Source: a virus
Taxonomy: Duplodnaviria; Caudoviricetes
DNA: 64,000 nt
Strand: one strand, 5' to 3'
IMG/VR virus record: IMGVR_UViG_3300025389_000022
Coordinates: 3,671 to 67,670 of that record
The notes beneath the pieces were generated by a model that was not told the origin of the DNA, did not search any database, and saw nothing but the letters and a program-made list of their open reading frames with translations. Positions within the stretch are counted from its first letter, which is position 1, and the number at the start of each line of letters is the position of its first letter. Positions 30,424-48,172 of this stretch are shown one piece after another. A program made the position numbers and the translations under genes.

Positions 30424-30642
30424 TTATAAAGGTAGGCTATTTCCCTTTTTAGTCTTAAGAAGATTAACTAATTCAGCTTCTCCACGAATCTTTGCTCTAA
30501 GAACAGGATCCTTCTTGATTAGTAGAGCTGCAGCCTCCACCTCGTATCTATGCTGCTCACACCAGAGCACCACACTCTCGGTATAGGATATGTCCTTCAT
30601 CCATACCAAGTCTTCTATCTCATTAGCAAAGGACTCATTCAT
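30424..30642 (-). CDS. gp33: Late transcription coactivator gp33
   Basis: F...IE..V....ISY.E.V...C.....E.E....LI....L..KI..EA...N.L pattern, in gp59-gp33 synteny. Confidence 0.8.
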   Translation of the reverse strand: MNESFANEIEDLVWMKDISYTESVVLWCEQHRYEVEAAALLIKKDPVLRAKIRGEAELVNLLKTKKGNSLPL

Positions 30643-30909: not shown

Positions 30910-31311
30910 CTATTTGATAGTGATTTTTGTCTCGTTGATATTCTGTCTTACTAGTTCAAAAAGAGTCGCCGAGTCTGATGGGGAGACTCTGACACATCCG
31001 TGACTTGCTGGACGACCCAGGTTATTGACACGAGGAGTAGCGTGAATAGCGTAGCCGCCGTTAAAAAAGATCGAATTTGGCATTGGCGCATTGTCGTACT
31101 TCTTTGAGTAGTGCATACGTTGAAGTGAGTATGGATAGTAGGTTCCAACAGGAGTGTAGTAACCCTTTCGAGCCGTAGACACCGGCATCACGTCGATCAG
31201 CTCACCATTCTGATACACCTCCATCGATTGATGTCTCTTGCTGACTACCAGCTCTATGTCTGCAAGAGCCGGTGTGGTAAACATAAGAGCCGCGAGTAGT
31301 AACTTCTTCAC
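30910..31311 (-). CDS. L,D-transpeptidase (YkuD/ErfK family) with signal peptide
   Basis: PVSTARKGYYTP.G, MHYSKKYDNAPMP.SIFF.GGYAIHAT and catalytic LGRPASHGCVRV motifs. Confidence 0.9.
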   Translation of the reverse strand: MKKLLLAALMFTTPALADIELVVSKRHQSMEVYQNGELIDVMPVSTARKGYYTPVGTYYPYSLQRMHYSKKYDNAPMPNSIFFNGGYAIHATPRVNNLGRPASHGCVRVSPSDSATLFELVRQNINETKITIK

Positions 31312-32043
31312 TCAGTCCTCCATAAGATTGTTCTTGATCTCTCTTAGAATAGTGCTTCGCTGTTTAGACTCTCTAAAAAACTTGTACCAGTACGGCATGC
31401 GACTATACTTGATACCAATAAAGTCTTTGAGTAAGACATTTTCTGACATCAGCTTAGCCAACTTGGTGTTGAGTTCAAACTTCTTTAGCGTAATATTCTC
31501 GTCTGTAAGAAACGTTACATAGCAATAATCGTCATCCTTGTTTAATTTTACATTATTAATAGATGAATCAACAAGCATTGCGCATTCAATAGGTCTAAAC
31601 CATTTACCAATGTTAAACTTACCAGGAATAAGTCTTGCTGATTTAGTGAATTCATTATTACTAAAATAAGGTCCACTAGTCATAATCTCGAGTGACTCTT
31701 CACAGAACATAATATATCTCACCTTTGCGGTGATCATTCCATCTGGAATACTTCTTAAATGTAAATAACTATCAAAGAACTTTTGATCATATAATAAAGA
31801 TCCAGCTTTATCATTCTCTCTATCTAAAGAGAATTCATAGTCGAATGGGAACTTAAGAGCATACGTATTCTTTGTTGAGTCTTTAACTGCAGGACAATAT
31901 TTAATTTTAGTCTGCTCACCAATAAACTTCATATCACATATACGTTCAAAGATATTCTCTGGTTCAGCGCAGCAGTTTGATGTAGAGAACGTATCAAGAG
32001 AATCATTAAATACGTCAGTAAATGCGGACCAATAGACAATCAT
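31312..32043 (-). CDS. Hypothetical protein
   Basis: 243-aa ORF with GGAG RBS. Contains CPA..D...NTY...FP.D and PG.F.IGKWFRP segments. Confidence 0.6.
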   Translation of the reverse strand: MIVYWSAFTDVFNDSLDTFSTSNCCAEPENIFERICDMKFIGEQTKIKYCPAVKDSTKNTYALKFPFDYEFSLDRENDKAGSLLYDQKFFDSYLHLRSIPDGMITAKVRYIMFCEESLEIMTSGPYFSNNEFTKSARLIPGKFNIGKWFRPIECAMLVDSSINNVKLNKDDDYCYVTFLTDENITLKKFELNTKLAKLMSENVLLKDFIGIKYSRMPYWYKFFRESKQRSTILREIKNNLMED

Positions 32044-32060
32044 TATAATACTCCATAAAG

Positions 32061-32135
32061 TGGCGATTCCACCAGGATTCGAACCTGGACCTAAGGTTTA
32101 GAAGACCCCTATGATATCCCTTTCACCATGGAACC
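32061..32135 (-). tRNA. tRNA-Arg (anticodon UCU) with encoded CCA
   Basis: Reverse complement GGTTCCATGGTGAAAGGGATATCATAGGGGTCTTCTAAACCTTAGGTCCAGGTTCGAATCCTGGTGGAATCGCCA folds as a cloverleaf with anticodon loop CT-TCT-AA and T-loop TTCGAAT. Confidence 0.95.
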
Positions 32136-32174
32136 ATTATACATATAATATCACGTTCCGCTGGTCTTGTAAAC

Positions 32175-32321
32175 TTATTTGATAGCGTGAGTGTCTTTAC
32201 CCTTGAAGCTCTTCTTCACGATCTTGAGCCAGAGCTTTCTCTCTTTCTTAGCGTCTTTGTCGATGATAGCCTTATAGAACTTCATGATGAGACGCTGAGT
32301 CTTACTCAACTTCTTAGCCAT
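32175..32321 (-). CDS. 48-aa highly basic protein
   Basis: MAKKLSKTQRLIMKFYKAIIDKDAKKERKLWLKIVKKSFKGKDTHAIK, with AGGAG RBS. Lies between the tmRNA and the tRNA. Confidence 0.7.
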   Translation of the reverse strand: MAKKLSKTQRLIMKFYKAIIDKDAKKERKLWLKIVKKSFKGKDTHAIK

Positions 32322-32339
32322 TTAACTTCTCCTAAAGAA

Positions 32340-32600
32340 TTGCCAGATTCTGTTTCTAGGTTCTGGCGGACCCAATGATTATGCTGCTAGAGCAATATCA
32401 AATGGTGCGAAGTTATCGTTAGCACCTGTTATTTGCCTTTGGTCTCCTTGAACCCTTACTACGCAGATCGATTCCCAGTATCACCCCCATCATAAGCACT
32501 CTTTTTAGCATAAATGGACTTTTGAGTGTTTATGGTGGAGGTGGGGGGATTTGAACCCCCGTCTCTTACGTCTATGTCGTTCCTCTCAACGACCTTGGCA
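32340..32600 (-). ncRNA. ssrA: Two-piece (circularly permuted) tmRNA, tag (A)ANDNFAPFDIALAA
   Basis: Acceptor piece ends ...GACGGGGGTTCAAATCCCCCCACCTCCACCA at 32533. A 44-nt spacer follows. The coding piece starts GGGGGTGATACTGGGAATCGA at 32488 and gives a 7-bp acceptor stem with G3:U. Tag ORF spans 32423-32379. Outer ends are approximate. Confidence 0.93.
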
Positions 32601-32605
32601 ATCTC

Positions 32606-32613
32606 TATTTATA
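32606..32613 (-). promoter_or_regulatory. Late promoter TATAAATA upstream of the tmRNA
   Basis: Exact match a few nt before the predicted 5' end of the acceptor piece. Confidence 0.75.
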
Positions 32614-32644
32614 ATTGTCTATCACCTCTTCATCCGGTAAGATG

Positions 32645-32761
32645 CTACCAGTTGCATGGGTTCGAAGTGTTGTCCCGTATAGCACACTCTGCGTACTTTG
32701 CAGATTGACAGCTAGCCAAGCTACAAAAGGATAACACCGTAATTAGTAAAAAATATTTCAT
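32645..32761 (-). CDS. Small lipoprotein (38 aa)
   Basis: MKYFLLITVLSFCSLASCQSAKYAECAIRDNTSNPCNW has a signal peptide and LASC lipobox. Its start overlaps the upstream stop. Confidence 0.6.
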   Translation of the reverse strand: MKYFLLITVLSFCSLASCQSAKYAECAIRDNTSNPCNW

Positions 32762-33123
32762 ACTTTCTGTCCTCTTACTTTATCTAAAAGCTTTGATAAG
32801 AACTCAATAGCAGAGTCATTGAATGTTACATCGTGGACTACACCGGTGACACAGTACTTCTCAGCTACAAGAGCATTCCCATCCTTTGTCTTATCATACT
32901 CAACAGTTATTGCACGACGATCATTAGAGATCATGAGCTCCTGTCGTCTGCCAGCTGTTGTCTCACCACCATAGACAGTGACAAGGTGATTATCCTCGAT
33001 ATACTTCATGAACTCTTTATTAGGATAGCACTTATACTCTGGCTTCGCCTCTTGTGCACCTGCATATGTTAGACCAAGCATGGCACCAACAAGAATGCCA
33101 TAGATATATAAAACTTTAGTCAT
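32758..33123 (-). CDS. Hypothetical exported protein
   Basis: N-terminal hydrophobic signal followed by AxA. Confidence 0.6.
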   Translation of the reverse strand: MTKVLYIYGILVGAMLGLTYAGAQEAKPEYKCYPNKEFMKYIEDNHLVTVYGGETTAGRRQELMISNDRRAITVEYDKTKDGNALVAEKYCVTGVVHDVTFNDSAIEFLSKLLDKVRGQKV

Positions 33124-33131
33124 GTTCTCTC

Positions 33132-33368
33132 CTATTCTACATCAATCACAGCATTGACGCTGAGACATGTATATTCTATCTTATTTTGTCTACGATCATA
33201 ATGGTACGTATATTTTAGAGGTATGCCTCCTGCGTCCAAACACATGTTATCAAAAGATTCTTTATGTTGTTGCTCTTCATAAGCAGCATATATAATAATA
33301 GATAAGAATACGATCGATAAGAAGGTCATTACATTTAGCAATACGTCTAGAAGTTTTCTATTCATCAC
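33132..33368 (-). CDS. Hypothetical membrane-anchored protein
   Basis: One N-terminal TM segment and a CxxxGG motif. Confidence 0.55.
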   Translation of the reverse strand: MMNRKLLDVLLNVMTFLSIVFLSIIIYAAYEEQQHKESFDNMCLDAGGIPLKYTYHYDRRQNKIEYTCLSVNAVIDVE

Positions 33369-33871
33369 ACCATCCTTAGTTGTTCTGTTTCATCTTTAAA
33401 TAGTTTTAATTCGCTATTTGTTTCTATCCATAATGATCTTTTATTTTCTTTCTTATTCTCTTCTTTACATACATATAGACATGGTCCTAATATATCTATT
33501 GCTTTACATTTTTCTGTATTATCATTAGTGGTAACATAGCATATTGGATTTGATCCAATATATATACCGTTTGGCCAATAATTTTTCTGCATAGCATTCT
33601 TATCTACCAATATTTTAGTTTTCATCTCACCATAATTATAATGATCGTCATCATGGTAAGTTACTTCTGATTTAGTAATACACCAAGCGCGTTTAATTCT
33701 TTTAGGAGTTCCTGGTGTTACAGGATAATCCGGATCATCTATATAAACTATTTGAGATGGTCCGGATACGTATAAACCTCGTGTTGCTGTTCCAATAAGT
33801 TTCCAATTACTATCTGAAACAACGATAGTTAAAACAGGATCAAACCATAAGTTTATATTCTTTAAACCCAC
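33365..33871 (-). CDS. Hypothetical protein
   Basis: 168-aa AT-rich ORF coupled to both neighbours. Confidence 0.5.
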   Translation of the reverse strand: MGLKNINLWFDPVLTIVVSDSNWKLIGTATRGLYVSGPSQIVYIDDPDYPVTPGTPKRIKRAWCITKSEVTYHDDDHYNYGEMKTKILVDKNAMQKNYWPNGIYIGSNPICYVTTNDNTEKCKAIDILGPCLYVCKEENKKENKRSLWIETNSELKLFKDETEQLRMV

Positions 33872-35007
33872 TAAATGATCCTTAGTAATATTGTGCTTTC
33901 ATTAATGCGCGACTGTATCGCCGCATTGTGTTTGAGTTCTTGATCGAGTTTTCTAAGAATAATTTTTCCGCCATCCAAGACTTTCTTGACCACTTCTTCC
34001 GGCTTGCGACCAGTTCGCAGGGTAAAGGACGATGCTTCATCGAATTTAATAATCGAAGCCCCCTTAACATCAAGACCTCCTCGATCAAGCGCACGAAATA
34101 CCGAGATCGTCTTATACTTTGTATTGAACGTCCATAATTCTTGTGCGCCAATGATTTTCTCAGGATTAACCGACGCAATCTTGAACGTGTTGTCTTCTTT
34201 CTGATATTTGAACGATTTAAGTTTCTTCTCGACCGACTGAACTCTTGGTTTTCTAGGCGCGCGAGTTCTCTTCGCCACTCCGGCATATTTTTCGGCATCA
34301 TCGCACATAGTAGAGTAGAACTTAACAAGTTTTTGTATATCGCTCTTTTTAAGATGTTTATATCCCTCTTTGAGTTGCTCATCCTTACCCTCGTATGCCT
34401 CAATTAGCTCATCAAGAACTGGTGCCAATTTAGCAATGATAGATGTAGAGTATGTAGCTGGTATGCTATTACTCTGAAGCCAATTGTATAGAGAGAACTC
34501 TTGATTTTCATGTATATAATCATCAATCATTCCCTCGATCTCACCGAGTATATCATGCGTCTTTTCTCTCATACGATCTTGAATAGATACTACCGGCTTA
34601 TCATTCTTCTCTTCTTTAATCTCTTCTTTAACTTTAGACCACATTGTGGTAAAATTACTACCAATAAATTGCATCGTGGTACCAGCAGGTTGATAACCAC
34701 GATTAATCATACGACAGAGCCAAGCAGCCGTCATTGGTATATCTGTGTCTGATATACGAGAGAGTTTCTTAGCGAGCTCAGGCTTGCCAGTGTTCTTAAA
34801 GTACTCCTTGATGTAATCACGAGCATCTGAATAGTTACACATATAATTGTACCAAGTCAGAGCGCGTGCTACATTGATCTCACCAACCATCACTGGCTCG
34901 TCGCCCAGATACTTACCATTGATCACCTGTTGCTCGGTCTTAGTGGTACGAGTAACTTTAGGTTTACTTTTGATTAAGTTAGGACGACGAGCCATCATTA
35001 TCTCCAA
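33871..35007 (-). CDS. Conserved T4-like hypothetical protein
   Basis: ALTWYNY and C-terminal IIGAQELWTFNTKYK...LR KPEE...RIN..TILLR family pattern. Has its own sigma70 promoter. Confidence 0.75.
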   Translation of the reverse strand: MEIMMARRPNLIKSKPKVTRTTKTEQQVINGKYLGDEPVMVGEINVARALTWYNYMCNYSDARDYIKEYFKNTGKPELAKKLSRISDTDIPMTAAWLCRMINRGYQPAGTTMQFIGSNFTTMWSKVKEEIKEEKNDKPVVSIQDRMREKTHDILGEIEGMIDDYIHENQEFSLYNWLQSNSIPATYSTSIIAKLAPVLDELIEAYEGKDEQLKEGYKHLKKSDIQKLVKFYSTMCDDAEKYAGVAKRTRAPRKPRVQSVEKKLKSFKYQKEDNTFKIASVNPEKIIGAQELWTFNTKYKTISVFRALDRGGLDVKGASIIKFDEASSFTLRTGRKPEEVVKKVLDGGKIILRKLDQELKHNAAIQSRINESTILLRII

Positions 35008-35427: not shown

Positions 35428-36384
35428 TTAAGCAGTTTCTGCGTATTCGACTGCCAGCTCGAGAGCCTTCGTCTTGAGGTTCTTATTAGTACCATACCAA
35501 GCAGAGGTCAGACGAGTATCTGCTGAGCGACCAACAAGATGGTCTGTGAGGTAGGTGACTGAATTATAAGCCTGCCACCAAGAACCCTCAGCGTACTCAG
35601 CTCCGGGCTGCTCATGAACAATTGATAGTGCACGTGAAGCGTTACGAGAAAGATCTTTCTTATTCTCATTTGAACCACCAACAGGGAACAGACGCTGGAA
35701 GTACTCGACGAGTGACTCCTCCTTATACATCTTCTCACCAAGGAACTGAGCCATCTCTTTGTACTGAGCCAGCTTATCCTTAGCGACACCGAGCATGATC
35801 TTGACATTGTCGGCATCAAATTGCTTGCGATGAGAGATCTTAGCCATTCTCTCTACCGAAGAACTCAGTGATAGCGACAGTGTATTGTTACACACCACGC
35901 GGATCGGGGTGAAGCGTACGTCGGTGGAGAACCCGTACTTATGGAAGTTAGAGAAAAGTAGATAGGAGTCGATCTTATCTCCCTTGAACAGCTCAAATGA
36001 GTCATTCACCTTAGCAAGAGCCCAGACGATCTGGCCATTTTTGAGTGAACCAGCCGTGTGCATCTGCATTTCACCAGCAGCAATGAAGTCGTTAAAGAAC
36101 TCAAAGGCTTCGAGGTTCTGCACTGGGTTCCAGTCGTCAGACACGATGTCAAGGATCTTAGAGTCTGATGAGCGAACAAGAGCCGCACGAGAAAGCTCTA
36201 CCAACTCTTCTTTAACGAGAGCAAACGTCGGAGATTTCTCGACGGTCCAGTTGAGACCAGCCTCATCGAGCATCTGGAGTGGAGTAAGATCAGGAGATAC
36301 CTGTTTGCCTAATCCATGCCATGGAACATCACCTGCGTAAGCCATCTGAGCCACGCCATTTACGAACTCAATTTCATGTGCCAT
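35428..36384 (-). CDS. DUF932 family protein
   Basis: MAY.G.VPWHGLG, V...W.PVQN.EAFEFF, TAGSLK.G..VWALA and FTPIRVVC.NTL motifs. Confidence 0.88.
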   Translation of the reverse strand: MAHEIEFVNGVAQMAYAGDVPWHGLGKQVSPDLTPLQMLDEAGLNWTVEKSPTFALVKEELVELSRAALVRSSDSKILDIVSDDWNPVQNLEAFEFFNDFIAAGEMQMHTAGSLKNGQIVWALAKVNDSFELFKGDKIDSYLLFSNFHKYGFSTDVRFTPIRVVCNNTLSLSLSSSVERMAKISHRKQFDADNVKIMLGVAKDKLAQYKEMAQFLGEKMYKEESLVEYFQRLFPVGGSNENKKDLSRNASRALSIVHEQPGAEYAEGSWWQAYNSVTYLTDHLVGRSADTRLTSAWYGTNKNLKTKALELAVEYAETA

Positions 36385-36451
36385 AATATAGTTTCCTTTG
36401 TTGTTTGACTATAAGATTATTATATCATATCAAATCAAAAAGTAAACTCTT

Positions 36452-36664
36452 TTATGCTGATCTTAGAGTGTTAGCGTAGGCGGTATGAGCGCATTTAAAG
36501 CCAGAGATCCACTCGTTCTGACGATAGAGCTCTGTCTGGACCAGCTTATCATTGGTCTGATCCACTGATAGATAGTTGTAAGGGCAATCCCTAACAGCAC
36601 CACCTTCTAGATAGTGCTCTCTACCCTCTTCAAAGAATTGATTAGTGTACTGCCATTCGCCCAT
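36452..36664 (-). CDS. Hypothetical protein
   Basis: FEEG...Y..G.....CPY...W..G pattern. Operonic context. Confidence 0.55.
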   Translation of the reverse strand: MGEWQYTNQFFEEGREHYLEGGAVRDCPYNYLSVDQTNDKLVQTELYRQNEWISGFKCAHTAYANTLRSA

Positions 36665-36667
36665 GTA

Positions 36668-36871
36668 TCACTCCTCTGTCAAGTCTTTCTTATTACGATC
36701 TACACCCACGAAGTTCTCTGGGTGCTTTAGTATCTCAGCCAAGAAAGTAAGAAACTCTTTTAAGTCTTCTTTATTATACTTAGCGCCGATCTTCTCTTCT
36801 CTAAGATATGCTCCAATTAAGCAATAAGCCTCATTAGCTGCTGGATAGTTTAATTTATCTCCTACTAACAT
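36668..36871 (-). CDS. Hypothetical protein
   Basis: AGGAG RBS. Operonic context. Confidence 0.55.
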   Translation of the reverse strand: MLVGDKLNYPAANEAYCLIGAYLREEKIGAKYNKEDLKEFLTFLAEILKHPENFVGVDRNKKDLTEE

Positions 36872-36897
36872 ATTAACTCCTGACTTTTGTTAAATAA

Positions 36898-37188
36898 TTA
36901 CTTATACTCTTCTAGAGTCCTATAATACCAGTAATTATCAACAAGATTTTGAAATTGACTCTCGAGTCCGTAATACACGTCACGGTCCATGATCGCTCCG
37001 AGAATATAAAGATAATCTTCTGGATCTGGTAAATATTGCTTACACAGATCAAGATAATCTCTACCACTCTTAGGTGGTTTGACCTTCACCCCGTCGATGA
37101 CGTAGGGCCAGTCTTCTGGTAATGGATCGTCGATGGTGGATGTGTTTAACGGCTTCTTAACAGGAAAAGCTATAATCTCAGCGGTCAT
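36898..37188 (-). CDS. Hypothetical protein
   Basis: Starts MTAEIIAFP. GAGG RBS. Confidence 0.55.
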   Translation of the reverse strand: MTAEIIAFPVKKPLNTSTIDDPLPEDWPYVIDGVKVKPPKSGRDYLDLCKQYLPDPEDYLYILGAIMDRDVYYGLESQFQNLVDNYWYYRTLEEYK

Positions 37189-37282
37189 TATACCCTCACT
37201 AGTCTCACTACTTTAAAAGTGGTGTTGTTGATCCAATAACCAACTTCCCATGCGTTTAGTGACATATTGTAGCGTCTCACCA

Positions 37283-37474
37283 TCACTTAGTCTCCAATAC
37301 CGGCTTACCAACTAGGCGATCCTGCTTTAGTAGATGGAGGAATATGATAGCGTCGTTCATCGTAGGAAACTTATGACGACGCTCGACGATAAAACCATCG
37401 TCGTTCTTAACAGAATAAGATACTCGAATAGACTTGTGATACCGCATAGCATCCTCCATCGTTGAGCTTCTCAT
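37283..37474 (-). CDS. Hypothetical protein
   Basis: GGAGG RBS before the internal Met. Operonic context. Confidence 0.5.
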   Translation of the reverse strand: MRSSTMEDAMRYHKSIRVSYSVKNDDGFIVERRHKFPTMNDAIIFLHLLKQDRLVGKPVLETK

Positions 37475-37634
37475 ATTTATTAACGCTTGTCTAACTTAGC
37501 ACCAATGCTCAGTAGTACGCACAGGATAGCGAAGAGCATATCGTACTCCGCCATCACCATGTTACCGACAAAAGCGAAGTAGCCAGACATGGCTATAAAG
37601 ATCATACAGATTATTTCCCAACCAACTGAAATCA

Positions 37635-38012
37635 TTACGCAGCCTCCATTACTTCTTTGACATGAGAACAAGTGCGACGACACCCGAAACCAGTACAGTC
37701 ACAGGAAAGAGAGCCAGTACCAGACATGGAGACTGTATACTGCTTGCCGTTCTTTCCAGGGATACATACGTACTTTCGATCATCATCGACATTTCGTGCA
37801 GCGGCGACACGCCAGCCACAGACGATATTATCCTTGAATAGTATTCTAACATCTCCGTTATCCTCTCTTAGACAAAACCAACTATCATCCAGCCAAGGGA
37901 ACCTAGGAATAATATTCCCAGTGTAGTCACTATGAGGACTAATAATGCAAGAAGGAGAGTAGCGGTCGCGTATAGGGTAGAGTACATTTGCGATCCTCAC
38001 TTTCAGTCTCAT
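37635..38012 (-). CDS. SWIM zinc-finger protein
   Basis: Y.V........SCDC.GF..RR.CSH motif. Confidence 0.7.
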   Translation of the reverse strand: MRLKVRIANVLYPIRDRYSPSCIISPHSDYTGNIIPRFPWLDDSWFCLREDNGDVRILFKDNIVCGWRVAAARNVDDDRKYVCIPGKNGKQYTVSMSGTGSLSCDCTGFGCRRTCSHVKEVMEAA

Positions 38013-38203
38013 CTCTTATCTTCCCTCTCATATTCTCCACACCAGTCGTTGGAGTATGTGGCAGGAAACTCTGACTCTTCTGAGTTGACGCGCGTCGGTG
38101 GATAGCGCCGACAGGAGTTGGTGTCGTGCTCATCGAGACGCACCCACGAAGAGCGATCCCAATAGATACACGACTCACATGTCTTCTTTTTCTTCATGAC
38201 CAA
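38009..38203 (-). CDS. Small Cys-rich protein
   Basis: C..C.YW...CRRYPP...FP.T...DWCGE pattern. Confidence 0.65.
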   Translation of the reverse strand: MVMKKKKTCESCIYWDRSSWVRLDEHDTNSCRRYPPTRVNSEESEFPATYSNDWCGEYEREDKR

Positions 38204-38218
38204 CTATCCTCGACCAAC

Positions 38219-39064
38219 TTACTTGCAGCACGTAATACGCGCTATCCTTTCCCAGTTGGAGCCCTGACGGCGAAGAGCGCCGAGCTTGAGAGCCATGCGG
38301 AGCGACAGCTCGCGAAGAGACTCAGAGTTCTTGTCGATGAACGACATAACGTCGGAGCGCTCAGCGACAGAGAGATCATCGAGGAGACCCTGCTTGATCA
38401 CCTGCTTGATGCGGATGATGTAGTCGCGACGAGACTTCATGGCGAGGTCGATGTAGTGAGCGCGAGAGACCAACGCCTGCAGGTGCGGGGCCAGCTTGTG
38501 ACCCTTGTCGATCATGGCATCAAAGTCATAGTTGGAGATAAAGATGATCGTGCCCTTGAACTCAAAGGTACGTGGGACCAGCATGCCGGTCTCATCGTCG
38601 ACCAGCTTACCCTCTGACATCCACGACACGACGCGACGCTCAGTGGTGTCGCACACGGCTTTAAGAAGATTGAGCGATACATCGTCAAAGAAAATAGCAT
38701 CGGCATCATCAAACACGATGACCTTACCCTCGTCCTTGTACTGGTTAAGCAGCTTGACAAGGCCGGTAGCACGAACATATCCTTTGACGATCGTGTAGTT
38801 ATCGCCCGATGGATCCCAGGTCGACAGACGCTCTTCAACTGTGTACGACTTACCAAGACCAGCAGGACCAGAGACGATCAGGGCTCGTGAGTTACCACAT
38901 GTGCATGCCTCGGCAAGTACATCAAGGATCTCAAAGCGCTCAGAGAGGCGGGCCTCGATCTCAGCGTCAGTCTCATTCGTGAGGTGGTCGTACTTTACTT
39001 TGACGTCGACCAACTTGTCGTATGACTTAGTGGAAGACTTGCGCTCATATACACCACGTGGCAT
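38219..39064 (-). CDS. AAA+-type ATPase
   Basis: Walker A GPAGLGKS, Walker B VIVFDDAD, sensor IIFISN. Confidence 0.85.
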   Translation of the reverse strand: MPRGVYERKSSTKSYDKLVDVKVKYDHLTNETDAEIEARLSERFEILDVLAEACTCGNSRALIVSGPAGLGKSYTVEERLSTWDPSGDNYTIVKGYVRATGLVKLLNQYKDEGKVIVFDDADAIFFDDVSLNLLKAVCDTTERRVVSWMSEGKLVDDETGMLVPRTFEFKGTIIFISNYDFDAMIDKGHKLAPHLQALVSRAHYIDLAMKSRRDYIIRIKQVIKQGLLDDLSVAERSDVMSFIDKNSESLRELSLRMALKLGALRRQGSNWERIARITCCK

Positions 39065-39167
39065 GATTGACTCCTCGTTAGCTTATATTCTTATATTACC
39101 ATATCTAGACCAGATGTACATAAAATAATGATTGTAAACTTAAAATATTTTTGTTTATGTAAACAGA

Positions 39168-39356
39168 TCATTCGCCATCGACGTTTACAATCCTCACGTC
39201 CTTGTCGTACACTTGAGTTGGATAGAGCCAGTCTAAGAAGTTGTACGCCTCGTCGTAGCTCTCAAACGTGTACGGCTCATCGTGAGAGGGAGAGACATCT
39301 CTCCACTCCCATCGACCATCTGAGCCCTCGCGACCAACCTGCAGTTTGTACGTCAT
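39168..39356 (-). CDS. Hypothetical early protein
   Basis: Coupled ORF in the leftward early operon. Confidence 0.55.
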   Translation of the reverse strand: MTYKLQVGREGSDGRWEWRDVSPSHDEPYTFESYDEAYNFLDWLYPTQVYDKDVRIVNVDGE

Positions 39357-39571
39357 GGGATCATATTAATAAGAGCGCCGTTGAGCATCGCACGCACGGC
39401 CTGGTTAGGAAATCTCTTCTTAAGCTGGTCAAGAGCATGTTGAACATTATAACCAATATTCGCGACTCTCCCCATCGTCGTCCAGTTCTTAGACGCGACC
39501 TGTTGGAGCTGGATGTCTACGCTCTCCATATTATTCCTCCTCTTCCTCTTCTTCTTTCTTCTCCACACCAT
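39353..39571 (-). CDS. Hypothetical early protein (likely start about 39529)
   Basis: GGAGG RBS precedes MESVDIQL. Confidence 0.5.
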   Translation of the reverse strand: MVWRRKKKRKRRNNMESVDIQLQQVASKNWTTMGRVANIGYNVQHALDQLKKRFPNQAVRAMLNGALINMIP

Positions 39572-39872
39572 AGTACTTATCTATAGCGTCCTCCACGCGT
39601 GAGCCGTCGCGAGTGTAGAAGACGTAGTCGCCGCATTCGACGCGAAACTCAGAGTCCACGTACTCAAATCCCCCGTAGTACTGGAGGGAGCGATCGTGGC
39701 TCTTGTGTATGACCACGCACTCCTCGTCCACCCAGAGCCTGTAGCCGGCGCGTATGTCGAGCCCCAGCTTCTTCGCGTCGGTCTCGTCCATGTTCCTCAC
39801 TCGACGATGAGCCAGCTCAGCGACCTCGTCGAGGAAGCTAAGCGTGGGTATCTCCCAGATTAAATGTTCCAT
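39531..39872 (-). CDS. Hypothetical early protein with acidic tail
   Basis: First gene after the promoter at 39934, with GGAG RBS. Confidence 0.6.
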   Translation of the reverse strand: MEHLIWEIPTLSFLDEVAELAHRRVRNMDETDAKKLGLDIRAGYRLWVDEECVVIHKSHDRSLQYYGGFEYVDSEFRVECGDYVFYTRDGSRVEDAIDKYYGVEKKEEEEEEE

Positions 39873-40055
39873 GTTCGTCTCCGCGTTGTCTCCACGTTAT
39901 ATTCTTATATTATATTAAAGAGAGAAATTGTACACAGAATAATGATTGTCGACTACATTTATTTTTGTTTATGTAAACAGAATTTTTTTGATAAAAATGT
40001 AAGTTTACATACTCTTACCTATGTACATTATCTCAGAATATGATATATTAAGAAT

Positions 40056-40355
40056 ATGATCAACGCTAAGGAGTCAGACATGACAGACCTCAATAAGCTC
40101 GCCTCGCTCATCTCCACCATCGACTCAATAGACGACCTAAGAAAGGTCAACGAGTGGGTGAGGGCGAAGGCATCTCACCTCCAGCGCGTCTCAGCCCACT
40201 CATTCTACAAGGGTATGAGAGTATCATTTAAGTCTAATAAGACAGGCTGTATAATCACTGGTAGAGTTAATAGAGTTAATCAAAAGACTCTATCCATCAT
40301 AGCCGAAGACGGTACGAGCTGGAAAGTCTCAGCGTCTCTAGTAAAGTCTATATAA
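40056..40355 (+). CDS. Hypothetical early protein, SH3-like C-terminus (likely start 40080)
   Basis: F.KGMRV.F......G.V.RVNQKT.S......WKVS pattern. Confidence 0.6.
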   Translation: MINAKESDMTDLNKLASLISTIDSIDDLRKVNEWVRAKASHLQRVSAHSFYKGMRVSFKSNKTGCIITGRVNRVNQKTLSIIAEDGTSWKVSASLVKSI

Positions 40356-40372
40356 TAAGAGGATATTATAAT

Positions 40373-40690
40373 ATGACTATATCTCTAGATCTATCTTATA
40401 CTAAGATTAACTCAGGATGTGGTACGTCTCTACAGGGATACATCAAGACCACGTACGCCGACCTCGTACACCTACTAGGTAAACCATCCTATAGGGGAGA
40501 GGGAGAGAAGATAACGTGTGAGTGGATTATTAAGTTTAATAATGGTCCACTAGTAACTATATACGACTATAAGACTGGTAAAACTCCTAAAGATCTATAT
40601 GAATGGCACGTGGGAGGGAACTCTAAGAACGCTCTATTCTATATTAATGAACTCGTTAAGAAGAACGACGTCTACGCTATCGTGAGCTAG
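40373..40690 (+). CDS. Conserved hypothetical phage protein
   Basis: GTSLQGYI..TY..LV..LG.P....K...EW....TIYDYK...WHVGG pattern. Confidence 0.65.
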   Translation: MTISLDLSYTKINSGCGTSLQGYIKTTYADLVHLLGKPSYRGEGEKITCEWIIKFNNGPLVTIYDYKTGKTPKDLYEWHVGGNSKNALFYINELVKKNDVYAIVS

Positions 40691-41127
40691 TCTACGTTGC
40701 TCCATATAATCCCCATACTAGGGGGATAGAGTATGACTAATGTACATATTTTCTGTGTGGATTAAAAACATCACTCTGGAAACACGTGCATCACTGTGAA
40801 CCACCGTTTACATTCTGAAAACAAAGTGTGGTTGACATTCATGTTTACAGTTGACATCTCTGGGCTCTATGGTATAATCTAATTATGATAAGGAATCGCA
40901 CGATGGTACGCAGGGCGCTCACTGACTTCTTCGCTACGGCCACTCTGACTTGGCCCTATCCACTCTGTAAGTACATGCTCTATCTCCAGGGCTGGCTTGG
41001 GTTGACATACGATAATATAGACTAGTATACAATAAACAAAGTGCTCTGTCAACTACAAATAATGGTTGACAATATCTGAGAACTTGGTATAATAGTCTAT
41101 ACGAACGACACAATAGGAGCTTGATTC

Positions 41128-41379
41128 ATGGCTAGATCATCAGCCTACAGGTTTACAGTCACCTCTCTAGAGGATCCTAGACTGGCTGAGCTGAGAGAGT
41201 TTGTCTCGTATACAAACACCATTAGAGAGCCAGGTACCGAGAGACGCAGAGTCTCTATTAGGCCGAGACTGGGCAAGAAGAACCCATACGCGTTCATGTA
41301 TCGCGGCATGTACCAGAGATCAATTAAGCGTAGCCATGCAAAGCACTTTGATATTTACGTCCACTGGGACGCGCGATGA
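41128..41379 (+). CDS. Hypothetical early protein
   Basis: AGGAG RBS and its own promoter at 41066. Confidence 0.6.
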   Translation: MARSSAYRFTVTSLEDPRLAELREFVSYTNTIREPGTERRRVSIRPRLGKKNPYAFMYRGMYQRSIKRSHAKHFDIYVHWDAR

Positions 41380-41419
41380 GTATACATACGCCTACTGCAC
41401 TATAAGCTAGGAGACTATC

Positions 41420-41659
41420 ATGCCGTACTACAGATTCGAGGAAGCGTGCCGGACGTTGACAGAGTGTGTCGATGCCATAGATATAGAGGTAGATGCCGGC
41501 TTGTCTTATGATGAGTTCGTCGCCGGCCTGTCGAGCGACCATGATAGGGATTCGTTCGAGCAGCTGGTGATCGCATGCGAGAACTTTATCGAGGTGATTG
41601 AGTGGCTCAAGATACCGGTAGAGGACGTCGACGAGGACGGAGTATACATACGTATGTAA
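41420..41659 (+). CDS. Hypothetical acidic early protein
   Basis: AGGAG RBS. Confidence 0.6.
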   Translation: MPYYRFEEACRTLTECVDAIDIEVDAGLSYDEFVAGLSSDHDRDSFEQLVIACENFIEVIEWLKIPVEDVDEDGVYIRM

Positions 41660-41747
41660 ACAGAATTATTTTCAGTTTACAATCACTTTCCCTATTGACA
41701 TATTCTTAGAGTATGGTATATTGAGACTATAAGCTAAGGAGAACGAC

Positions 41748-41918
41748 ATGAATGCTCGGTTTGTAAACAAGTCCGTACCATCATCCATGGCCCAGGCTAT
41801 AGCTGCATGCACGGTGCCGGTCACGGTTGTCAACAAGGGCTCTAACAGGCGCCACCAGACCGGCTTCTCCAACACCCAGATCTTCAAGGGTACGTACCGC
41901 GTGCCGGTAAAGTTCTGA
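41748..41918 (+). CDS. Hypothetical 56-aa early protein
   Basis: Manual translation MNARFVNKSV...YRVPVKF. AAGGAG RBS after the promoter at 41695. Confidence 0.55.
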   Translation: MNARFVNKSVPSSMAQAIAACTVPVTVVNKGSNRRHQTGFSNTQIFKGTYRVPVKF

Positions 41919-42100
41919 AAATAAGTGATTGTCGACTACACTTTTGTGGTTGACATGTTCTAAGAATATGGTAATATAAGAATATAACATGGAGACAAGA
42001 TCATGAATACGCAAGAGCTTCAGAACGTCATCGGCCTCTCGATCGTTACGGTCGGCCTGCTGGTATTCGTCGTTATGGTTCAGGTGCTCGAGGTGATCCA

Positions 42101-42286
42101 ATGAAGGTAGGCACGTATAAGCTGCTCATAGAGTACTACGACCACCAGTCCAACCACCCGCTCAAGGTCGCGTTCTCAGGGATCAGCCGGTCGGCGGTCC
42201 AGCGCTACATGGCCTATTACAGGAGAAAGTACGTGGTCAAGAGCTGGATGATGCTCGACCGTCCCGATGGACTTGTATCGTTCTGA
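42101..42286 (+). CDS. Hypothetical early protein
   Basis: Coupled to an upstream 33-aa hydrophobic ORF (42003-42104). Confidence 0.5.
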   Translation: MKVGTYKLLIEYYDHQSNHPLKVAFSGISRSAVQRYMAYYRRKYVVKSWMMLDRPDGLVSF

Positions 42287-42388
42287 TACAGTTTATGTAA
42301 ACAGAAAAAAGTGTATGTAAACTGCACTTTGTGGGTTGACAAGTTCCGAGAATATGGTACTATGAGAATATAACATGGAGACAGTGAT

Positions 42389-42886
42389 ATGACAACGTTT
42401 ACTAAGCACGCATACGCCCTCAAGGTACTCGGCGACAACAGCGCGATCACCGAGGCAGACTTCATCGAGCAGATGCTCACGGGCGCCTGCTTCCTCAAGT
42501 CCAGCCCGTTCACGCCGGATCAGGCCAAGGCATACTTTCGCGGCTGCTCCAAGGAGCTCGGTCTCGTCGTAGCCAAGGCGGTTCGCATGAAGCAGCCCAA
42601 GAAGGCAGGCAAGGTCAAGGTCACGCCTCAGAAGTTCCCTAAGGTGCTCATGACCGATAAGCCTAAGGTGACTGACAAGACAGTCGAGGAGCTCGCAGAC
42701 ATCAAGGCTAAGAACCTTGCTCGTCTGAAGGCCGTTGGCGCCAAGTACCAGAAAGGCCAGGTCGCTGCGGTACGGTACTCAGACGAGCCCTTTGATGAGA
42801 GCGCAGTCCCGAACCTGCTGAACGAACTCGACTCGTTCAAGGCCCCAGCGTTTCTCTCGAAGGACGACGTGAAGGCGCTCGTCTAA
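42389..42886 (+). CDS. Hypothetical early protein (Lys/Ala-rich)
   Basis: First gene after the promoter at 42336. GC3-rich, host-like codons. Confidence 0.7.
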   Translation: MTTFTKHAYALKVLGDNSAITEADFIEQMLTGACFLKSSPFTPDQAKAYFRGCSKELGLVVAKAVRMKQPKKAGKVKVTPQKFPKVLMTDKPKVTDKTVEELADIKAKNLARLKAVGAKYQKGQVAAVRYSDEPFDESAVPNLLNELDSFKAPAFLSKDDVKALV

Positions 42887-43066
42887 CAGGCTCTGCAGTG
42901 CGACTGTAAACGGTGTAGGCATCGGGTCTCGGCTCGGTGCCTATATTACATATTTCTAGTGTAAATTGTTTACAATTAACAAAATAAAAGTGTAGTTTAC
43001 AATCACTTTCCTATGTACATTCTGGCCGGATATGGTATTATAAGAATATAAGCTGAGGAGAGTCGG

Positions 43067-43246
43067 ATGGATCGCAAGGTTATACAGATCGCCTATATCG
43101 AGGACGCGGTGGAGCGCATGTCGGTCGAGGAGCTGGTGTGGTTCGCTAAGATGCGCATGAAGGAGGACCTAGACCTGCTGGACGACGAGGAGCTGATCGC
43201 TGAGGTCCGCGATCTGGCGCCTGAGCTTCTGGAGGAGTCGAAATGA
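43067..43246 (+). CDS. Hypothetical acidic 59-aa early protein
   Basis: Manual translation MDRKVIQIAYIEDAVERMSVEELVW. GAGGAG RBS after the promoter at 43014. Confidence 0.6.
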   Translation: MDRKVIQIAYIEDAVERMSVEELVWFAKMRMKEDLDLLDDEELIAEVRDLAPELLEESK

Positions 43247-43378
43247 ATAGCGTGCACCAGGTGATCTTCTCCGGCTCGTTCCGGTACGTGGCCAGGCGCC
43301 TCGATGAGATGTCGGACCTCGGCTACAGAGTGGTCAAGTCTAAGAAGTGGTCCGACGACAAGTGGACGTACGTGATGA

Positions 43379-43894
43379 CTAAAGATATTCGAAGGTGAAC
43401 GGACACTTGAATGTTGGTCTAGCGTCTGGTTTGACTTTAGTGCATATAGTTCGTCTGGTAATACCGAGAGCATTAGCGCATTCATTAACGCTATCGTATA
43501 CTATTCCGGTCTGTATGCATCTTACCTTCTGTCTGCGATGACCACTGGCTAACTGAGCAGCCGACATACTAAGACGTGCTTCTTCTGTTACTGGTGGTCT
43601 GTTGTGCCAGTTCTCTCGTAGCTTATCGGACATCTTCTTCCTGGCCTCTTCTATATGTCGCCAGCCGGTTCTACGTCTATTGGATTCTCTTATGGTCTCT
43701 GACATGATCTCGTCCATACCTACTAACCCTGATATGCATTTAAATGCGATGAGATCATAGTGATTGCCATGCTTCTCGTATAGCTCTTTATGAGCTTCTG
43801 CGTGTTCTTCTATGGTGAGTTTGATAAGATTAGATGGGTCGTCAGTGCCGCCCATGTGCTTGGGGATGATGTGGTGGATATGATAAGTAGTCAT
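43379..43894 (-). CDS. Free-standing HNH homing endonuclease with NUMOD3/NUMOD1-type DNA-binding repeats
   Basis: HHIIPKHMGGTDD.SNL..LT.EEH..AH, H.EE.RKKMS and C..TG.VYDS..E.A..LG motifs. Confidence 0.9.
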   Translation of the reverse strand: MTTYHIHHIIPKHMGGTDDPSNLIKLTIEEHAEAHKELYEKHGNHYDLIAFKCISGLVGMDEIMSETIRESNRRRTGWRHIEEARKKMSDKLRENWHNRPPVTEEARLSMSAAQLASGHRRQKVRCIQTGIVYDSVNECANALGITRRTICTKVKPDARPTFKCPFTFEYL

Positions 43895-43998
43895 GCTGAT
43901 GCCTCTGTGTTAGGTGTTAGAGCCCATGGATGTTAGCGCATCGCGATGGGTATTATATTTATTCAACTAATATACGTGATGGAGAAGGAGATCAAGCG

Positions 43999-44175
43999 AT
44001 GAGCCGCATCCCTAGGGAGTACACGAACAAGATCGCCGAGATGGTCGACAATCACGTCCTCGACAAGGGCCGTCTCATAGAGGACCTGCTCTGCTGGATG
44101 TCTGAGGACGACGTCAAGGACTTCTACATGGCGAACATAGCTCCGGAGTTCGACGATGAAGAAGAAGAGGAATAG
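43999..44175 (+). CDS. Hypothetical acidic protein
   Basis: AAGGAG RBS precedes MSRIPREY. Confidence 0.6.
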   Translation: MSRIPREYTNKIAEMVDNHVLDKGRLIEDLLCWMSEDDVKDFYMANIAPEFDDEEEEE

Positions 44176-44366
44176 GCCGGTAAACGTATACGCCATGGCC
44201 CTGTCTGAGAATGTATACAGACAGAGGGTAGTGCAGTCGAGGCGCGTATACAATCGCAAGAGACTGTCTAAAATATAGTCATCGGTAACCCCTGTTTACA
44301 TTCACTTTTTTGTGTACTTTATCTCCACTTATGGTATTATAAGAATATAGGCTGACGTGAGACACC

Positions 44367-44585
44367 ATGGAGACTGTGATGAAAGTTTATACCCTTTCCC
44401 ACTGCACCTCATACGAAGGCGATAACTTACTTGGTATCTACCAGTATCTCTCTCAGGCACAAGAAGCCGAGTATGCATTCAAACTCAACGAAGAAATGTT
44501 TGATGCTTGGACTGAGATACGTGAAGTAACTATGGGTGCTGCTCCTAAGCTCGATTTTGGTGGACTCGGTGAGGAGGTAAAGTAA
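44367..44585 (+). CDS. Hypothetical early protein
   Basis: First gene after the promoter at 44313. Confidence 0.55.
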   Translation: METVMKVYTLSHCTSYEGDNLLGIYQYLSQAQEAEYAFKLNEEMFDAWTEIREVTMGAAPKLDFGGLGEEVK

Positions 44586-45058
44586 TGGCATATCTCAACG
44601 CGCTCGACGCCGACTCCGGATGGGTCGTCGTATATATAACCCTAGACAAGGTGAACTGGGCCGGCCCGTCCAGCTCAATATGGATCGTTCCGGGTACGAT
44701 CGACGAAACCGCGAGGTGGTAACATGACACTTATGGAAGAGTTCGCTAAGTACGACTGCCGTCTCATAAAGGACGAGGAGTCACTGGTCTGGCTCGGCAT
44801 GGCTCTCTGGGAGGAATGATCATGGCTGAGACCGTACTGGGGCTGCTCCTCGTGCCCGTCATATTCGCGGCCGCTGTCGCAATCGATCGCTACTTTGGAG
44901 ACTGGTGATGCCTGAGTTCTTTTCTAGAGACGCTGACTCGAGACTCCATGAGATCGCGTCCGTGCTGTATGGCAGACTCGAGGATCTCAGAGAGGGCATG
45001 GACGTCCGGTCTGAGTTCAAGTTCCTGTGCGAGCTCCTAGACAGGATGGAGAGGTGAT

Positions 45059-45241
45059 GTGTCTAAGATAGTAAAGATGATCGATCCTCCTGGTGGATGG
45101 AGATATGGTTTTCCTAAAATCATACCAGAAGGCGTCGACGTCATAAAGTGGCTGGTAGAACAGGGTTATCCACAGGCCGAGATCGACAGCTGTGGCGATC
45201 ATTTCTACTGTAGGTACTGGCAGGAGGAGATAGACGAATGA
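45059..45241 (+). CDS. Conserved small phage protein
   Basis: MIDPP.GWRYGFPK.......WL...GYP pattern. Confidence 0.6.
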   Translation: MSKIVKMIDPPGGWRYGFPKIIPEGVDVIKWLVEQGYPQAEIDSCGDHFYCRYWQEEIDE

Positions 45242-45594
45242 GTGACTATACAGACCTTGTGAAGCGATTGCGTCGTGATGGCGTTGCTGCCCGAGACACA
45301 TTGAAATGTGTGGAAATGGCGCCTACGGTTGACCCAGAAGATGCGCTTGAAGCCGCTGATGCTATTGAGGCGCAAGCAAAACGAATTGAGGAACTAGAGG
45401 CTGATCTCATAGAAAAGATTAACGTTGATAGGATCGTCTTGGAAGAACTAAAAGAGTCCTATCGTGAGACGATCCGGGTCGATGATGATGAGGCATTACT
45501 AATTGCCCTCAATGCGGTGATCTCATATTATTCTACTCATGAAGAGTACCAGGAGTGGATAGTAGAGAAGAATAAATTGAGGGAAAAGAAATGA
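45238..45594 (+). CDS. Coiled-coil hypothetical protein, paralog 1
   Basis: MSDYTDLVKRLR...EAADAIE...RIEELEA. Confidence 0.65.
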   Translation: MSDYTDLVKRLRRDGVAARDTLKCVEMAPTVDPEDALEAADAIEAQAKRIEELEADLIEKINVDRIVLEELKESYRETIRVDDDEALLIALNAVISYYSTHEEYQEWIVEKNKLREKK

Positions 45595-45938
45595 CTGACT
45601 ATTCAGACCTTATGACACGATTGAGAGAACATGCCGAAAATATGTATGTAGATTTCCTCAATGAAGCCGCCGATGCTATTGAGCTTTTACAGCGCGAACT
45701 AAAATGCGCGAATGAACTATGGGAGCAGCAAAAGGAACTGGCATTGGAATATTTGGCTGACATAGAGAAGGCTAATGAGCGGATTGCTGAACTAGAGGCA
45801 GCGTTAAAGCCGTTCGCGCTAGGAGAGACAGCAATAGAAGCCGGACATAATGCTGCATCAGACGACTATCCTTTGATGCAAGTTGTATCATGTGGCGACC
45901 TACGCCAAGCTCGTAAGGTATTAGGAGAGAAGGAATGA
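45591..45938 (+). CDS. Coiled-coil hypothetical protein, paralog 2
   Basis: MTDYSDLMTRLR...EAADAIE...RIAELEAALKPFA...GDLRQA. Confidence 0.65.
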   Translation: MTDYSDLMTRLREHAENMYVDFLNEAADAIELLQRELKCANELWEQQKELALEYLADIEKANERIAELEAALKPFALGETAIEAGHNAASDDYPLMQVVSCGDLRQARKVLGEKE

Positions 45939-46339
45939 CTGACTATTCAAATCTTGTAAAGCGTCAGCGAGAAATATCAGAAGCCTCATACAAAATGCGT
46001 GATAATATTTACCGTCCAGTAAATGAGACTGCCGACGCATTAGAGGCGAAGGACGCGGAAATAGATTATTGGAAAAACCGCACCCGCGAAGCACTCGAAA
46101 CAATAAATCACATCGAACGCATTGCACAAAAACAATCTGATGAACTGAATGTGCTTCGTGGTAGCATAGCGAATTACCAGGTTGGAGTGCATGAAGCTCG
46201 CATCGCTGAACTAGAGGCAGCACTACGACCGTTTGCTGATGCCAGTGATCTCCACCTTGGTAGCGATGATATGTCTATAGCGTTTCGTATAATCATCGGA
46301 AACCTACGTCAAGCTAAGAGCGTATTGGATAACAAATGA
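45935..46339 (+). CDS. Coiled-coil hypothetical protein, paralog 3
   Basis: MTDYSNLVKRQR...ETADALE...RIAELEAALRPFA...GNLRQA. Confidence 0.65.
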   Translation: MTDYSNLVKRQREISEASYKMRDNIYRPVNETADALEAKDAEIDYWKNRTREALETINHIERIAQKQSDELNVLRGSIANYQVGVHEARIAELEAALRPFADASDLHLGSDDMSIAFRIIIGNLRQAKSVLDNK

Positions 46340-46542
46340 CAGACTTCAGAGAATTAACAGACGAGCAGGTGCTGGAGGAGGCCCATCGCCTGGCGCGGTC
46401 CGTCTCGTACTACAACGCTGCAGAGGGCAACTGGGACAGGGAGCGTCGAGAGCGCGAGGCTTGCTACGTCCAGTATCGCGCGGTGATGAGAGAGATGAGT
46501 GCTCGTGGACTTGAGTTTGTCAACAAGGGGTACCTACTATGA
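46336..46542 (+). CDS. Hypothetical protein
   Basis: ATGA-coupled ORF. Confidence 0.55.
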   Translation: MTDFRELTDEQVLEEAHRLARSVSYYNAAEGNWDRERREREACYVQYRAVMREMSARGLEFVNKGYLL

Positions 46543-46922
46543 AGTTTCAGTTAAGAGACCGTGTCATCATGGTCGTGACAGAGACAAAGTATAGAGGAGA
46601 GATCGGCACGGTCGTAGATCTAGACTGCGTCGGAAACCACGTGGTCAACCTCGTGGTCCAGTTCGACTGCAACAAGATCGGTCATCACGTTAGGTTTCCT
46701 TCTCACTACTTCGAGCTCTACTTTCGAAAAGAAGTGCATGATCCCGAACCAGTCAAAGACTATGAGAGCATGAACTTTGTTCTTCAAGAGAAGATACAGA
46801 GACTCAACGAGTATATCGCGAAGCTCGAGGACGACGGGTTCAAGTATCGAAGAGCTCTTGTTGAGATACAAATGAAGGCGCAGGAAACTCTAAGACCGAT
46901 ACCGTTTCAGGAGGATGAATAA
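46539..46922 (+). CDS. Hypothetical protein (SH3-like N-terminus plus coiled coil)
   Basis: KFQL.DRV.......Y.GEIGTVV pattern. Confidence 0.55.
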   Translation: MKFQLRDRVIMVVTETKYRGEIGTVVDLDCVGNHVVNLVVQFDCNKIGHHVRFPSHYFELYFRKEVHDPEPVKDYESMNFVLQEKIQRLNEYIAKLEDDGFKYRRALVEIQMKAQETLRPIPFQEDE

Positions 46923-46971
46923 TGTTACTAAATCGCAAGACAGAGATCTATTGGCTGTGGAACCCTAGATT

Positions 46972-48164: not shown

Positions 48165-48172
48165 TATAAATA
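48165..48172 (+). promoter_or_regulatory. Late promoter TATAAATA
   Basis: Exact match 30 nt upstream of the ORF at 48203. Confidence 0.75.

Follow-up and report, generated by a model that had tools for sequence, protein, structure and literature searches.

The stretch of DNA analysed here (64,000 nucleotides, hereafter the window) is 64 kb out of a 67.7-kb virus record of IMG/VR, IMGVR_UViG_3300025389_000022, whose completeness is put at 40% by CheckV. On the minus strand of the window, this uncultured lake phage carries a complete gene for transfer-messenger RNA (tmRNA, the product of ssrA), which releases ribosomes that have stalled and marks the incomplete proteins on them for degradation. 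The gene is permuted, with an acceptor piece ending in CCA placed upstream of the coding piece and a spacer between the two.

A first-pass annotation, made from the letters of the window alone, had claimed a phage-borne, acceptor-first, two-piece tmRNA of the alphaproteobacterial type at this place and had proposed covariance models and ARAGORN as the check. Both matched. ARAGORN called a permuted tmRNA at 32288-32626 on the minus strand, and two Rfam models were aligned over their full length with scores above their cut-offs, namely tmRNA_permuted (RF04321; 83.5 bits, E 1.7e-14, cut-off 47) and alpha_tmRNA (RF01849; 62.4 bits, E 9.5e-15, cut-off 50). The presence of a two-piece tmRNA gene is confirmed, and the promoter box, acceptor piece, spacer, coding piece and tag all lie on the minus strand where that annotation had placed them (Table 1). 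The 3' portion of the acceptor piece reads GACGGGGG-TTCAAAT-CCCCC-CACCTCC-A-CCA, and a D-loop-like GG..AUCGA is present in the coding piece.

Table 1. Positions of the tmRNA gene, its parts and associated features in the window
Feature	Position	Strand	Remark
T4-type late promoter box TATAAATA	32606..32613	-	Exact match; box conserved upstream of relatives' genes
5' leader UUGCC	32597..32601	-	Pairs with GGCAA at 32437-32433
Acceptor piece, 62 nt	32533..32594	-	RF04321 model positions 1-62; holds the P2 3' strand
T-arm	32560-32544	-	Part of acceptor piece
Acceptor 3' strand CACCTCC	32543-32537	-	Part of acceptor piece
Discriminator A	32536	-	Part of acceptor piece
Encoded CCA	32535-32533	-	3' end of acceptor piece
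Intervening segment (spacer), 44 nt	32489..32532	-	Between acceptor and coding pieces
Coding piece, about 150 nt, 3' end approximate	32334..32488	-	From covariance model and alignment
Acceptor 5' strand GGGGGTG	32488-32482	-	Start of coding piece
P2 5' strand	32467-32441	-	In coding piece
GGCAA	32437-32433	-	In coding piece
Tag reading frame, GCT..TAA	32379..32423	-	In coding piece
Post-tag pseudoknot	32342..32373	-	Two stems, covariation
Lysine-rich 48-codon open reading frame	32175..32321	-	AGGAGA ribosome-binding site; between tmRNA and tRNA-Arg
tRNA-Arg(TCT)	32061..32135	-	ARAGORN and Rfam; usual downstream neighbour of the tmRNA family
gp33 homologue (T4 late-transcription co-activator)	30424..30642	-	Similarity to a protein of phage Mosig

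Pairing and compensatory change in the RNA

To collect relatives, IMG/VR was scanned for exact matches to patterns taken from three short pieces of the gene, and about 100 contigs were returned. Among these, 59 phage loci hold a complete permuted gene of the window's family, and they represent about 30 distinct sequences. The 96 contigs that contain a 17-nt search motif were rejected as a count of tmRNAs, since many of them are chance matches in unrelated GC-rich contigs. The structure was written from the window sequence and then counted on 25 distinct family members aligned with MAFFT, to which the counts in this section refer unless another set is named.

Standard pairs were found in 93.1% of the alignment cells, compared to 37-49% when the partners were slid against each other. 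Pairs changed on both sides numbered 25, compared to a mean of 13.3 in shuffles, and the covariation score was 0.371, compared to 0.146 in the shuffles (none of 500 reached the observed score) and at most 0.085 in the slid alignments. The acceptor stem is formed by CACCTCC and GGGGGTG and comprises 7 bp including G3:U; all seven pairs are standard in every one of the 25 sequences, and pairs 4-6 covary. The G3:U pair, which the first-pass annotation had read as the alanine identity pair beside an encoded CCA, is invariant in all 25 members, as is the discriminator A. The T-arm is 100% paired with four covarying pairs.

The two pieces are joined by the P2 helix, whose duplex architecture is common to 20 distinct types. 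P2b and P2c are 100% paired, with two-sided changes in all four pairs of P2b; the figure for P2a is 79%, a shortfall due in part to the alignment. Helix P2d, formed by the leader UUGCC and GGCAA of the coding piece, is paired in 94-96% of cells, and a double compensatory change to UGCUU/AAGCA was found in the relative L002 and likewise in the L011 sequence.

Downstream of the tag, a pseudoknot is formed by two stems. Stem a joins GGGU (32373-32370) and ACCU (32361-32358), and its last pair covaries as U:A, G:C or C:G; stem b joins GCCAGA (32367-32362) and UCUGGC (32347-32342), with a duplex energy of -10.6 kcal/mol for cognate strands versus -3.4 kcal/mol for non-cognate strands across 30 distinct 3' domains. 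The pseudoknot loop GAAACAGAA is invariant across the family.

Two local pairings fared differently. The hairpin GTCGTT/AACGAC, described for the acceptor piece in the first-pass annotation, does exist in the window sequence and is present in its single-sequence minimum-energy fold. As a conserved structure it was rejected: across relatives it is kept in just 66% of cells, whereas a competing alternative, in which these bases pair with the coding piece, holds in 98-100% of cells and shows compensatory changes. In this competing pairing, bases of the hairpin segment join the coding piece as GGUC with GACC and GAAC with GUUC, and the GAAC/GUUC helix is swapped for ACGA/UCGU, ACGC/GCGU or UAGC/GCUA in relatives. 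A pairing of the leader with the 3' end (UGGCAAU), also seen in the minimum-energy fold, was rejected because it competes with the covarying stem b of the pseudoknot and is without a counterpart in L002.

The spacer between the two pieces

The claim of a 44-nt self-pairing spacer was borne out in both its length and its end pairing. The ends AAACACTC and GAGTGCTT pair with each other, and in the single-sequence fold the resulting stem stacks on the acceptor stem. Across 29 distinct spacers, the duplex of cognate ends has an energy of -12.5 kcal/mol, compared to -5.9 kcal/mol for non-cognate ends; the helix is 90% paired and contains six covarying pairs. Spacer lengths in the family range from 44 nt, which is the length in the window and the shortest, to 520 nt.

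The window spacer is without an open reading frame (ORF). Spacers of 482 and 520 nt (L002, also L003, L004, L006 and L007; L035) contain an ORF of about 155 codons, which opens with an HNH-type motif, HHI[IV]PKH.GG, an assignment made from the motif and not from a family search. The 113-nt spacer of L013 retains just the 3' end of the HNH-motif ORF.

Tag reading frame and host factors

The tag is read from the resume codon GCT (32423-32421) through 14 codons to the stop TAA (32381-32379), with the product ANDNFAPFDIALAA. ARAGORN starts the window tag one codon earlier (GANDNF...), and most of its calls in relatives start at A; in the alignment-based reading, every tag of the family begins at a GCN alanine resume codon. 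The family has 22 different tags, 13-15 residues long; all keep the frame, and their lengths differ by whole codons. Every one starts with (A)ANDN and ends with ALAA (19 tags) or ALVA (three tags). The earlier claim of an ANDN...ALAA tag in the window is supported. Inside the family tags there is a common PF(D/E/G) motif. One genome from each of 185,579 species was scanned with a degenerate pattern for ANDNFAPF; none of the 15 matches is a tmRNA by ARAGORN, and the scan excludes that exact 8-residue prefix only.

Taken together, the covariation, the perfect acceptor stem, the spacer stem, the pseudoknot and the kept tag frame rule out a decaying relic, and they point to selection on both the structure and the tag frame.

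Neither the record nor any of four large relatives (G001-G004, three of them 96-100% complete) yielded an SmpB gene. The first-pass annotation had stated that no smpB lies in the window, and this now extends to the record and to the three relatives that are at least 96% complete. With no SmpB detected in the phage, the RNA has to depend on factors of the host. An SspB adaptor was not found among the phage-encoded partners searched. A ClpP-family protein of 188-206 residues is present in three of the four large relatives (L124:1492-2058 in G001, and similar ones in G003 and G004). These proteins fall below the NCBIfam cut-offs for ClpP and match ClpP-related head-maturation proteases about equally, and we therefore draw no link between this gene and the tag.

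The lack of a detectable phage SmpB bears on the possibility that the RNA acts mainly as a decoy or regulator, soaking up host SmpB, alanyl-tRNA synthetase (AlaRS) or RNase R, or inhibiting host trans-translation. The phage RNA would then compete for the host's SmpB. Precedents exist in the mycobacteriophage DS6A, whose tmRNA-like RNA without a coding part inhibits the tmRNA of the host upon expression in Escherichia coli (PMC11915505), and in the regulation of RNase R by tmRNA-SmpB (PMC11662646). However, a pure decoy would have no need of a tag, and all 22 variants preserve the tag frame, with conserved start and end, a stop codon and length changes by whole codons. We therefore regard a role mainly as decoy or regulator as unlikely.

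Late-type promoter box

The box TATAAATA lies 11 nt before the acceptor base G1 and 4 nt before the leader UUGCC. Among 28 distinct upstream regions of the family, TAAATA was found 9-11 nt before G1 in all 28 and ATAAATA in 26, and the sequence farther upstream of the box is unrelated between subgroups. The claim of a late-type promoter box directly upstream of the gene is thus upheld, with its position kept in every upstream region compared. In T4, the transcript begins about 6 nt after the late box. By this rule, the predicted transcription start is at about 32600, where the UUGCC leader starts. Given this spacing, the 5' end of the primary transcript may already be that of the mature RNA. 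Promoter and terminator scans of the window locus found no sigma-70-type promoter upstream of the tmRNA and no canonical terminator downstream.

Further copies of TATAAATA stand 21-31 nt before start codons at 23156(-), 23614(+), 30421(-) and 63086(+). The window also encodes a homologue of gp33, with 37% identity over 57 residues (E 4e-11) to a protein of Pelagibacter phage Mosig EXVC030M (MT647606.1) that is annotated as 'putative late promoter transcription accessory'. The presence of this homologue suggests that the phage has T4-type late transcription. From the conserved box and gp33 we infer, with good support, that the tmRNA is expressed late in the window's lineage.

In L011 and L057, a perfect TTGACA-16-TATAAT overlaps the late ATAAATA box, whereas the window has the late box only. 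The overlapping promoters suggest both early and late expression in these two relatives.

Relatives and exchange of the gene core

The window carries the gene set of a T4-like myovirus, including a gp5-type baseplate hub, baseplate wedge and tail proteins, together with replication and recombination genes for the gp32 single-strand DNA-binding protein, the gp59 helicase loader, the gp43 DNA polymerase, the gp41 helicase and UvsX. For the DNA polymerase, no cultured phage is closer than the marine cyanomyoviruses, at about 50% identity. The tmRNA gene is flanked by phage genes (gp59, gp32, gp43, gp41, UvsX and baseplate genes), and independent contigs from many samples show the gene beside the same neighbours (tRNA-Arg(TCT), the 48-codon ORF and the upstream gene).

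This recurrence bears on whether the gene could have entered the record through an assembly chimera or through host contamination of a viral contig. Such an origin would suit a record that is a metagenome-derived fragment of 40% completeness, and it is hard to reconcile with the recurrence of gene and neighbours or with the relative L053, which is 90-93% identical to the window in both flanks. We consider an artefact of this kind scarcely credible.

A BLASTN search of the gene against 50,697 phage records gave nothing at default limits; at E up to 10, there were short T-arm matches only, the best relevant one being to the SsrA gene of Mosig. The exact tmRNA family of the window thus seems to occur in no cultured phage among these records.

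The comparison with L053 revealed an uneven distribution of change. The two phages are 90% identical upstream of the gene and 93% downstream, and only 51% identical across 32582-32397. The diverged core of about 190 nt, which was compared with L053:2941-3223, comprises P2b, P2a, the T-arm, the acceptor stem, the spacer, the 5' strand and the first half of the tag. The T-loop is UUCAAAU in the window, in contrast to the alpha-type GGCGGUA of the close relatives L053 and L041. These comparisons suggest that near-identical phages have exchanged the tmRNA core. Such cassettes could be exchanged among phages, perhaps dragged along by the HNH homing nucleases encoded in some spacers. If so, the swaps might evade host nucleases that target tRNA-like RNAs, or might retune the adaptor or protease handling of tagged proteins late in infection. 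The diverged core in near-identical flanks, together with PF(D/E/G) tags and a tag start, ANDNFAPF, seen in no bacterial tmRNA of the genomes searched, may also be offered as evidence that the phage tmRNA family evolves as a lineage of its own under diversifying pressure. We regard this wider proposal as doubtful.

The same data can be set against the view that the gene is a recently captured copy of a host ssrA, carried as neutral cargo without benefit to the phage. The alphaproteobacterial type of the gene agrees with capture, and tmRNA genes are common integration sites at which fragments are picked up (PMC9004378). However, the gene is complete, its place in the genome is shared by many diverged T4-like contigs of the lytic type, a phage late box replaces the host promoter, compensatory change is extensive, and none of the pattern matches to the tag start in bacterial genomes is a tmRNA. 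Neutral cargo is accordingly very improbable in our judgement.

Proposed pathway and its weighing

We consider it highly probable that the window encodes a functional, phage-borne, permuted ssrA of the alphaproteobacterial type, belonging to a large family in uncultured aquatic T4-like myoviruses. In the pathway that we propose, the late transcription apparatus (gp33 being present and gp55 assumed) would start at about 32600 and yield a precursor of about 270 nt. In folding, the precursor would join the 3' strand CACCUCC to the 5' strand GGGGGUG, and the spacer stem would stack on the helix so formed. Host RNase P would then cut 5' of G32488, and host 3' processing would trim the acceptor piece to its encoded CCA (32533), so that the 44-nt spacer would be discarded. 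The resulting pieces, one of about 67 nt and the other of about 150 nt, would be held together by the acceptor stem and the four-part P2 helix.

Once matured in this way, the RNA would be charged by host AlaRS, which would recognize G3:U and the discriminator A, and host SmpB and EF-Tu would bring the charged RNA to stalled ribosomes. Translation would resume on GCU and add ANDNFAPFDIALAA, whose ALAA end would act as a ClpXP-type degron. The likely benefit to the phage is that ribosome recycling would be kept up late in infection. The RNA might serve for rescue after loss of host RNA, for countering a tRNA-cleaving defence or for altering the specificity of tagging.

Several points weigh against this reading of a working, late-expressed tmRNA. 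The spacer stem of the window is the weakest in the family (-7.3 kcal/mol). Between P2 and the resume codon, a region for which no dedicated pseudoknot search was run, no pseudoknot of the PK1 type could be identified. The distance from P2c to the resume codon is 17 nt, the site being taken by the leader:GGCAA helix where other tmRNAs have PK1, and in the Rfam alignment an 18-nt stretch of the RF01849 consensus in the PK1 region is missing here. The box TATAAATA is not enriched window-wide, with nine copies found and 6.1 expected. The late transcription factor gp55 was not seen among the scanned ORFs of the 40%-complete record, for which no family search for gp55 was made. The published reading of the promoter in the OM43 Methylophilales phage Melnitz is early, and the timing may therefore differ between lineages. 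Lastly, it is from the sequence that we infer the processing, the charging (aminoacylation), the tagging, the timing and the benefit of the RNA.

Neighbouring genes

The order of tmRNA followed by tRNA-Arg(TCT) was also found in L010, L013, L015 and L017, and a sigma-70-like site is located at 32173-32145 (-). The 48-codon ORF between the two RNA genes is conserved in the close relatives L053, where one residue differs and several changes are synonymous, and L041. Its product has no Pfam family above noise and is matched by only two protein clusters in a large protein database. About 1 kb downstream of the tmRNA, an ORF at 30910-31311 (-) matches the YkuD L,D-transpeptidase domain (E 1.1e-20).

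Farther away, the GC content is 46-49% across 36000-52000, compared to 34-43% elsewhere in the window, and this higher-GC block may be accessory or acquired. A free-standing ORF resembling a homing endonuclease is located within it at 43379-43894 (-) (phrog_655, E 4e-18).

Comparison with known tmRNAs

The window gene is a new member of a class that aquatic T4-like phages were already known to carry. The premise of the first-pass annotation that known phage tmRNAs are one-piece is outdated, as two-piece forms were published in 2022 (PMC9004378) and one is annotated in Mosig. Buchholz et al. (2022, PMC9004378) described a two-piece alpha-type ssrA in Melnitz, classed 53 of 133 unique phage tmRNAs as two-piece, with 50 of these 53 from marine or aquatic phages, and found permuted tmRNA in 17 of 47 related contigs. 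In the published reading, the Melnitz ssrA has an early promoter and a glutamine riboswitch; the riboswitch, in the 3' part, was reported for Melnitz and Mosig only and is not a defining feature (PMC9004378).

Taken alone, our result is at the level of annotation, one more aquatic T4-like phage with a two-piece ssrA. What is new, in modest degree, is that family-wide compensatory changes and the kept tag frame argue for selection as working tmRNAs, that a late-type box replaces the 5' hairpin kept by Mosig and by bacterial alpha tmRNAs, and that the gene core appears exchangeable between near-identical phages. The question of why lytic phages should spend resources on rescuing ribosomes late in infection could reasonably be studied in this family.

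The closest comparison is with Mosig, in which SsrA is annotated directly upstream of gp33, thyX and a gp59-like gene, and ARAGORN reads the gene as permuted with the tag (G)EDNFALAA. In both phages, the tmRNA lies upstream of a module of gp33, gp59 and gp32 (in Mosig, gp32 presumably), the spacer is short and self-pairing, starting with UAAACAC and ending with UUUAUG, and the 3' domain contains the GAAACAGAA loop. However, sequence similarity is confined to a 38-nt T-arm stretch at 89.5%, and the Mosig tag differs from the ANDNFAPFDIALAA of the window. Mosig has the 5' hairpin and is without an ATAAATA box, whereas in the window family the hairpin is lost and the late box is present; gp33 is adjacent to the tmRNA in Mosig and about 1.7 kb downstream of it in the window. 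With Melnitz as with Mosig, the window shares a permuted alpha-type tmRNA in a T4-like phage and the lack of a reported phage SmpB. Melnitz differs in its early promoter and riboswitch from the window, which has a late-type box and no glutamine riboswitch that could be detected: neither glnA nor Downstream-peptide was matched in 31000-34000, even at permissive thresholds (E up to 1).

The two-piece tmRNA of alphaproteobacteria, of the Caulobacter type (Keiler, Shapiro and Williams 2000, as cited in PMC9004378), has the same acceptor-first order, a tRNA-like domain and P2 formed between the pieces, an ANDN... tag with a hydrophobic AA end, and a conserved CAGAA loop in the 3' domain. In contrast to it, the window gene is phage-borne and stands under a phage late-type box, is without the 5' hairpin and the 18-nt PK1-region stretch of the RF01849 consensus, has the general T-loop UUCAAAU instead of the alpha-type GGCGGUA, and has a tag start, ANDNFAPF, that occurs in no tmRNA among the bacterial species genomes searched. 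The one-piece tmRNAs of cultured phages such as mycobacteriophages and Streptomyces phages (RF00023) are likewise phage-borne rescue RNAs dependent on host SmpB, and their T-arm sequences are similar to that of the window. They differ in their standard order, whereas the window gene is permuted and would need an extra maturation cut.

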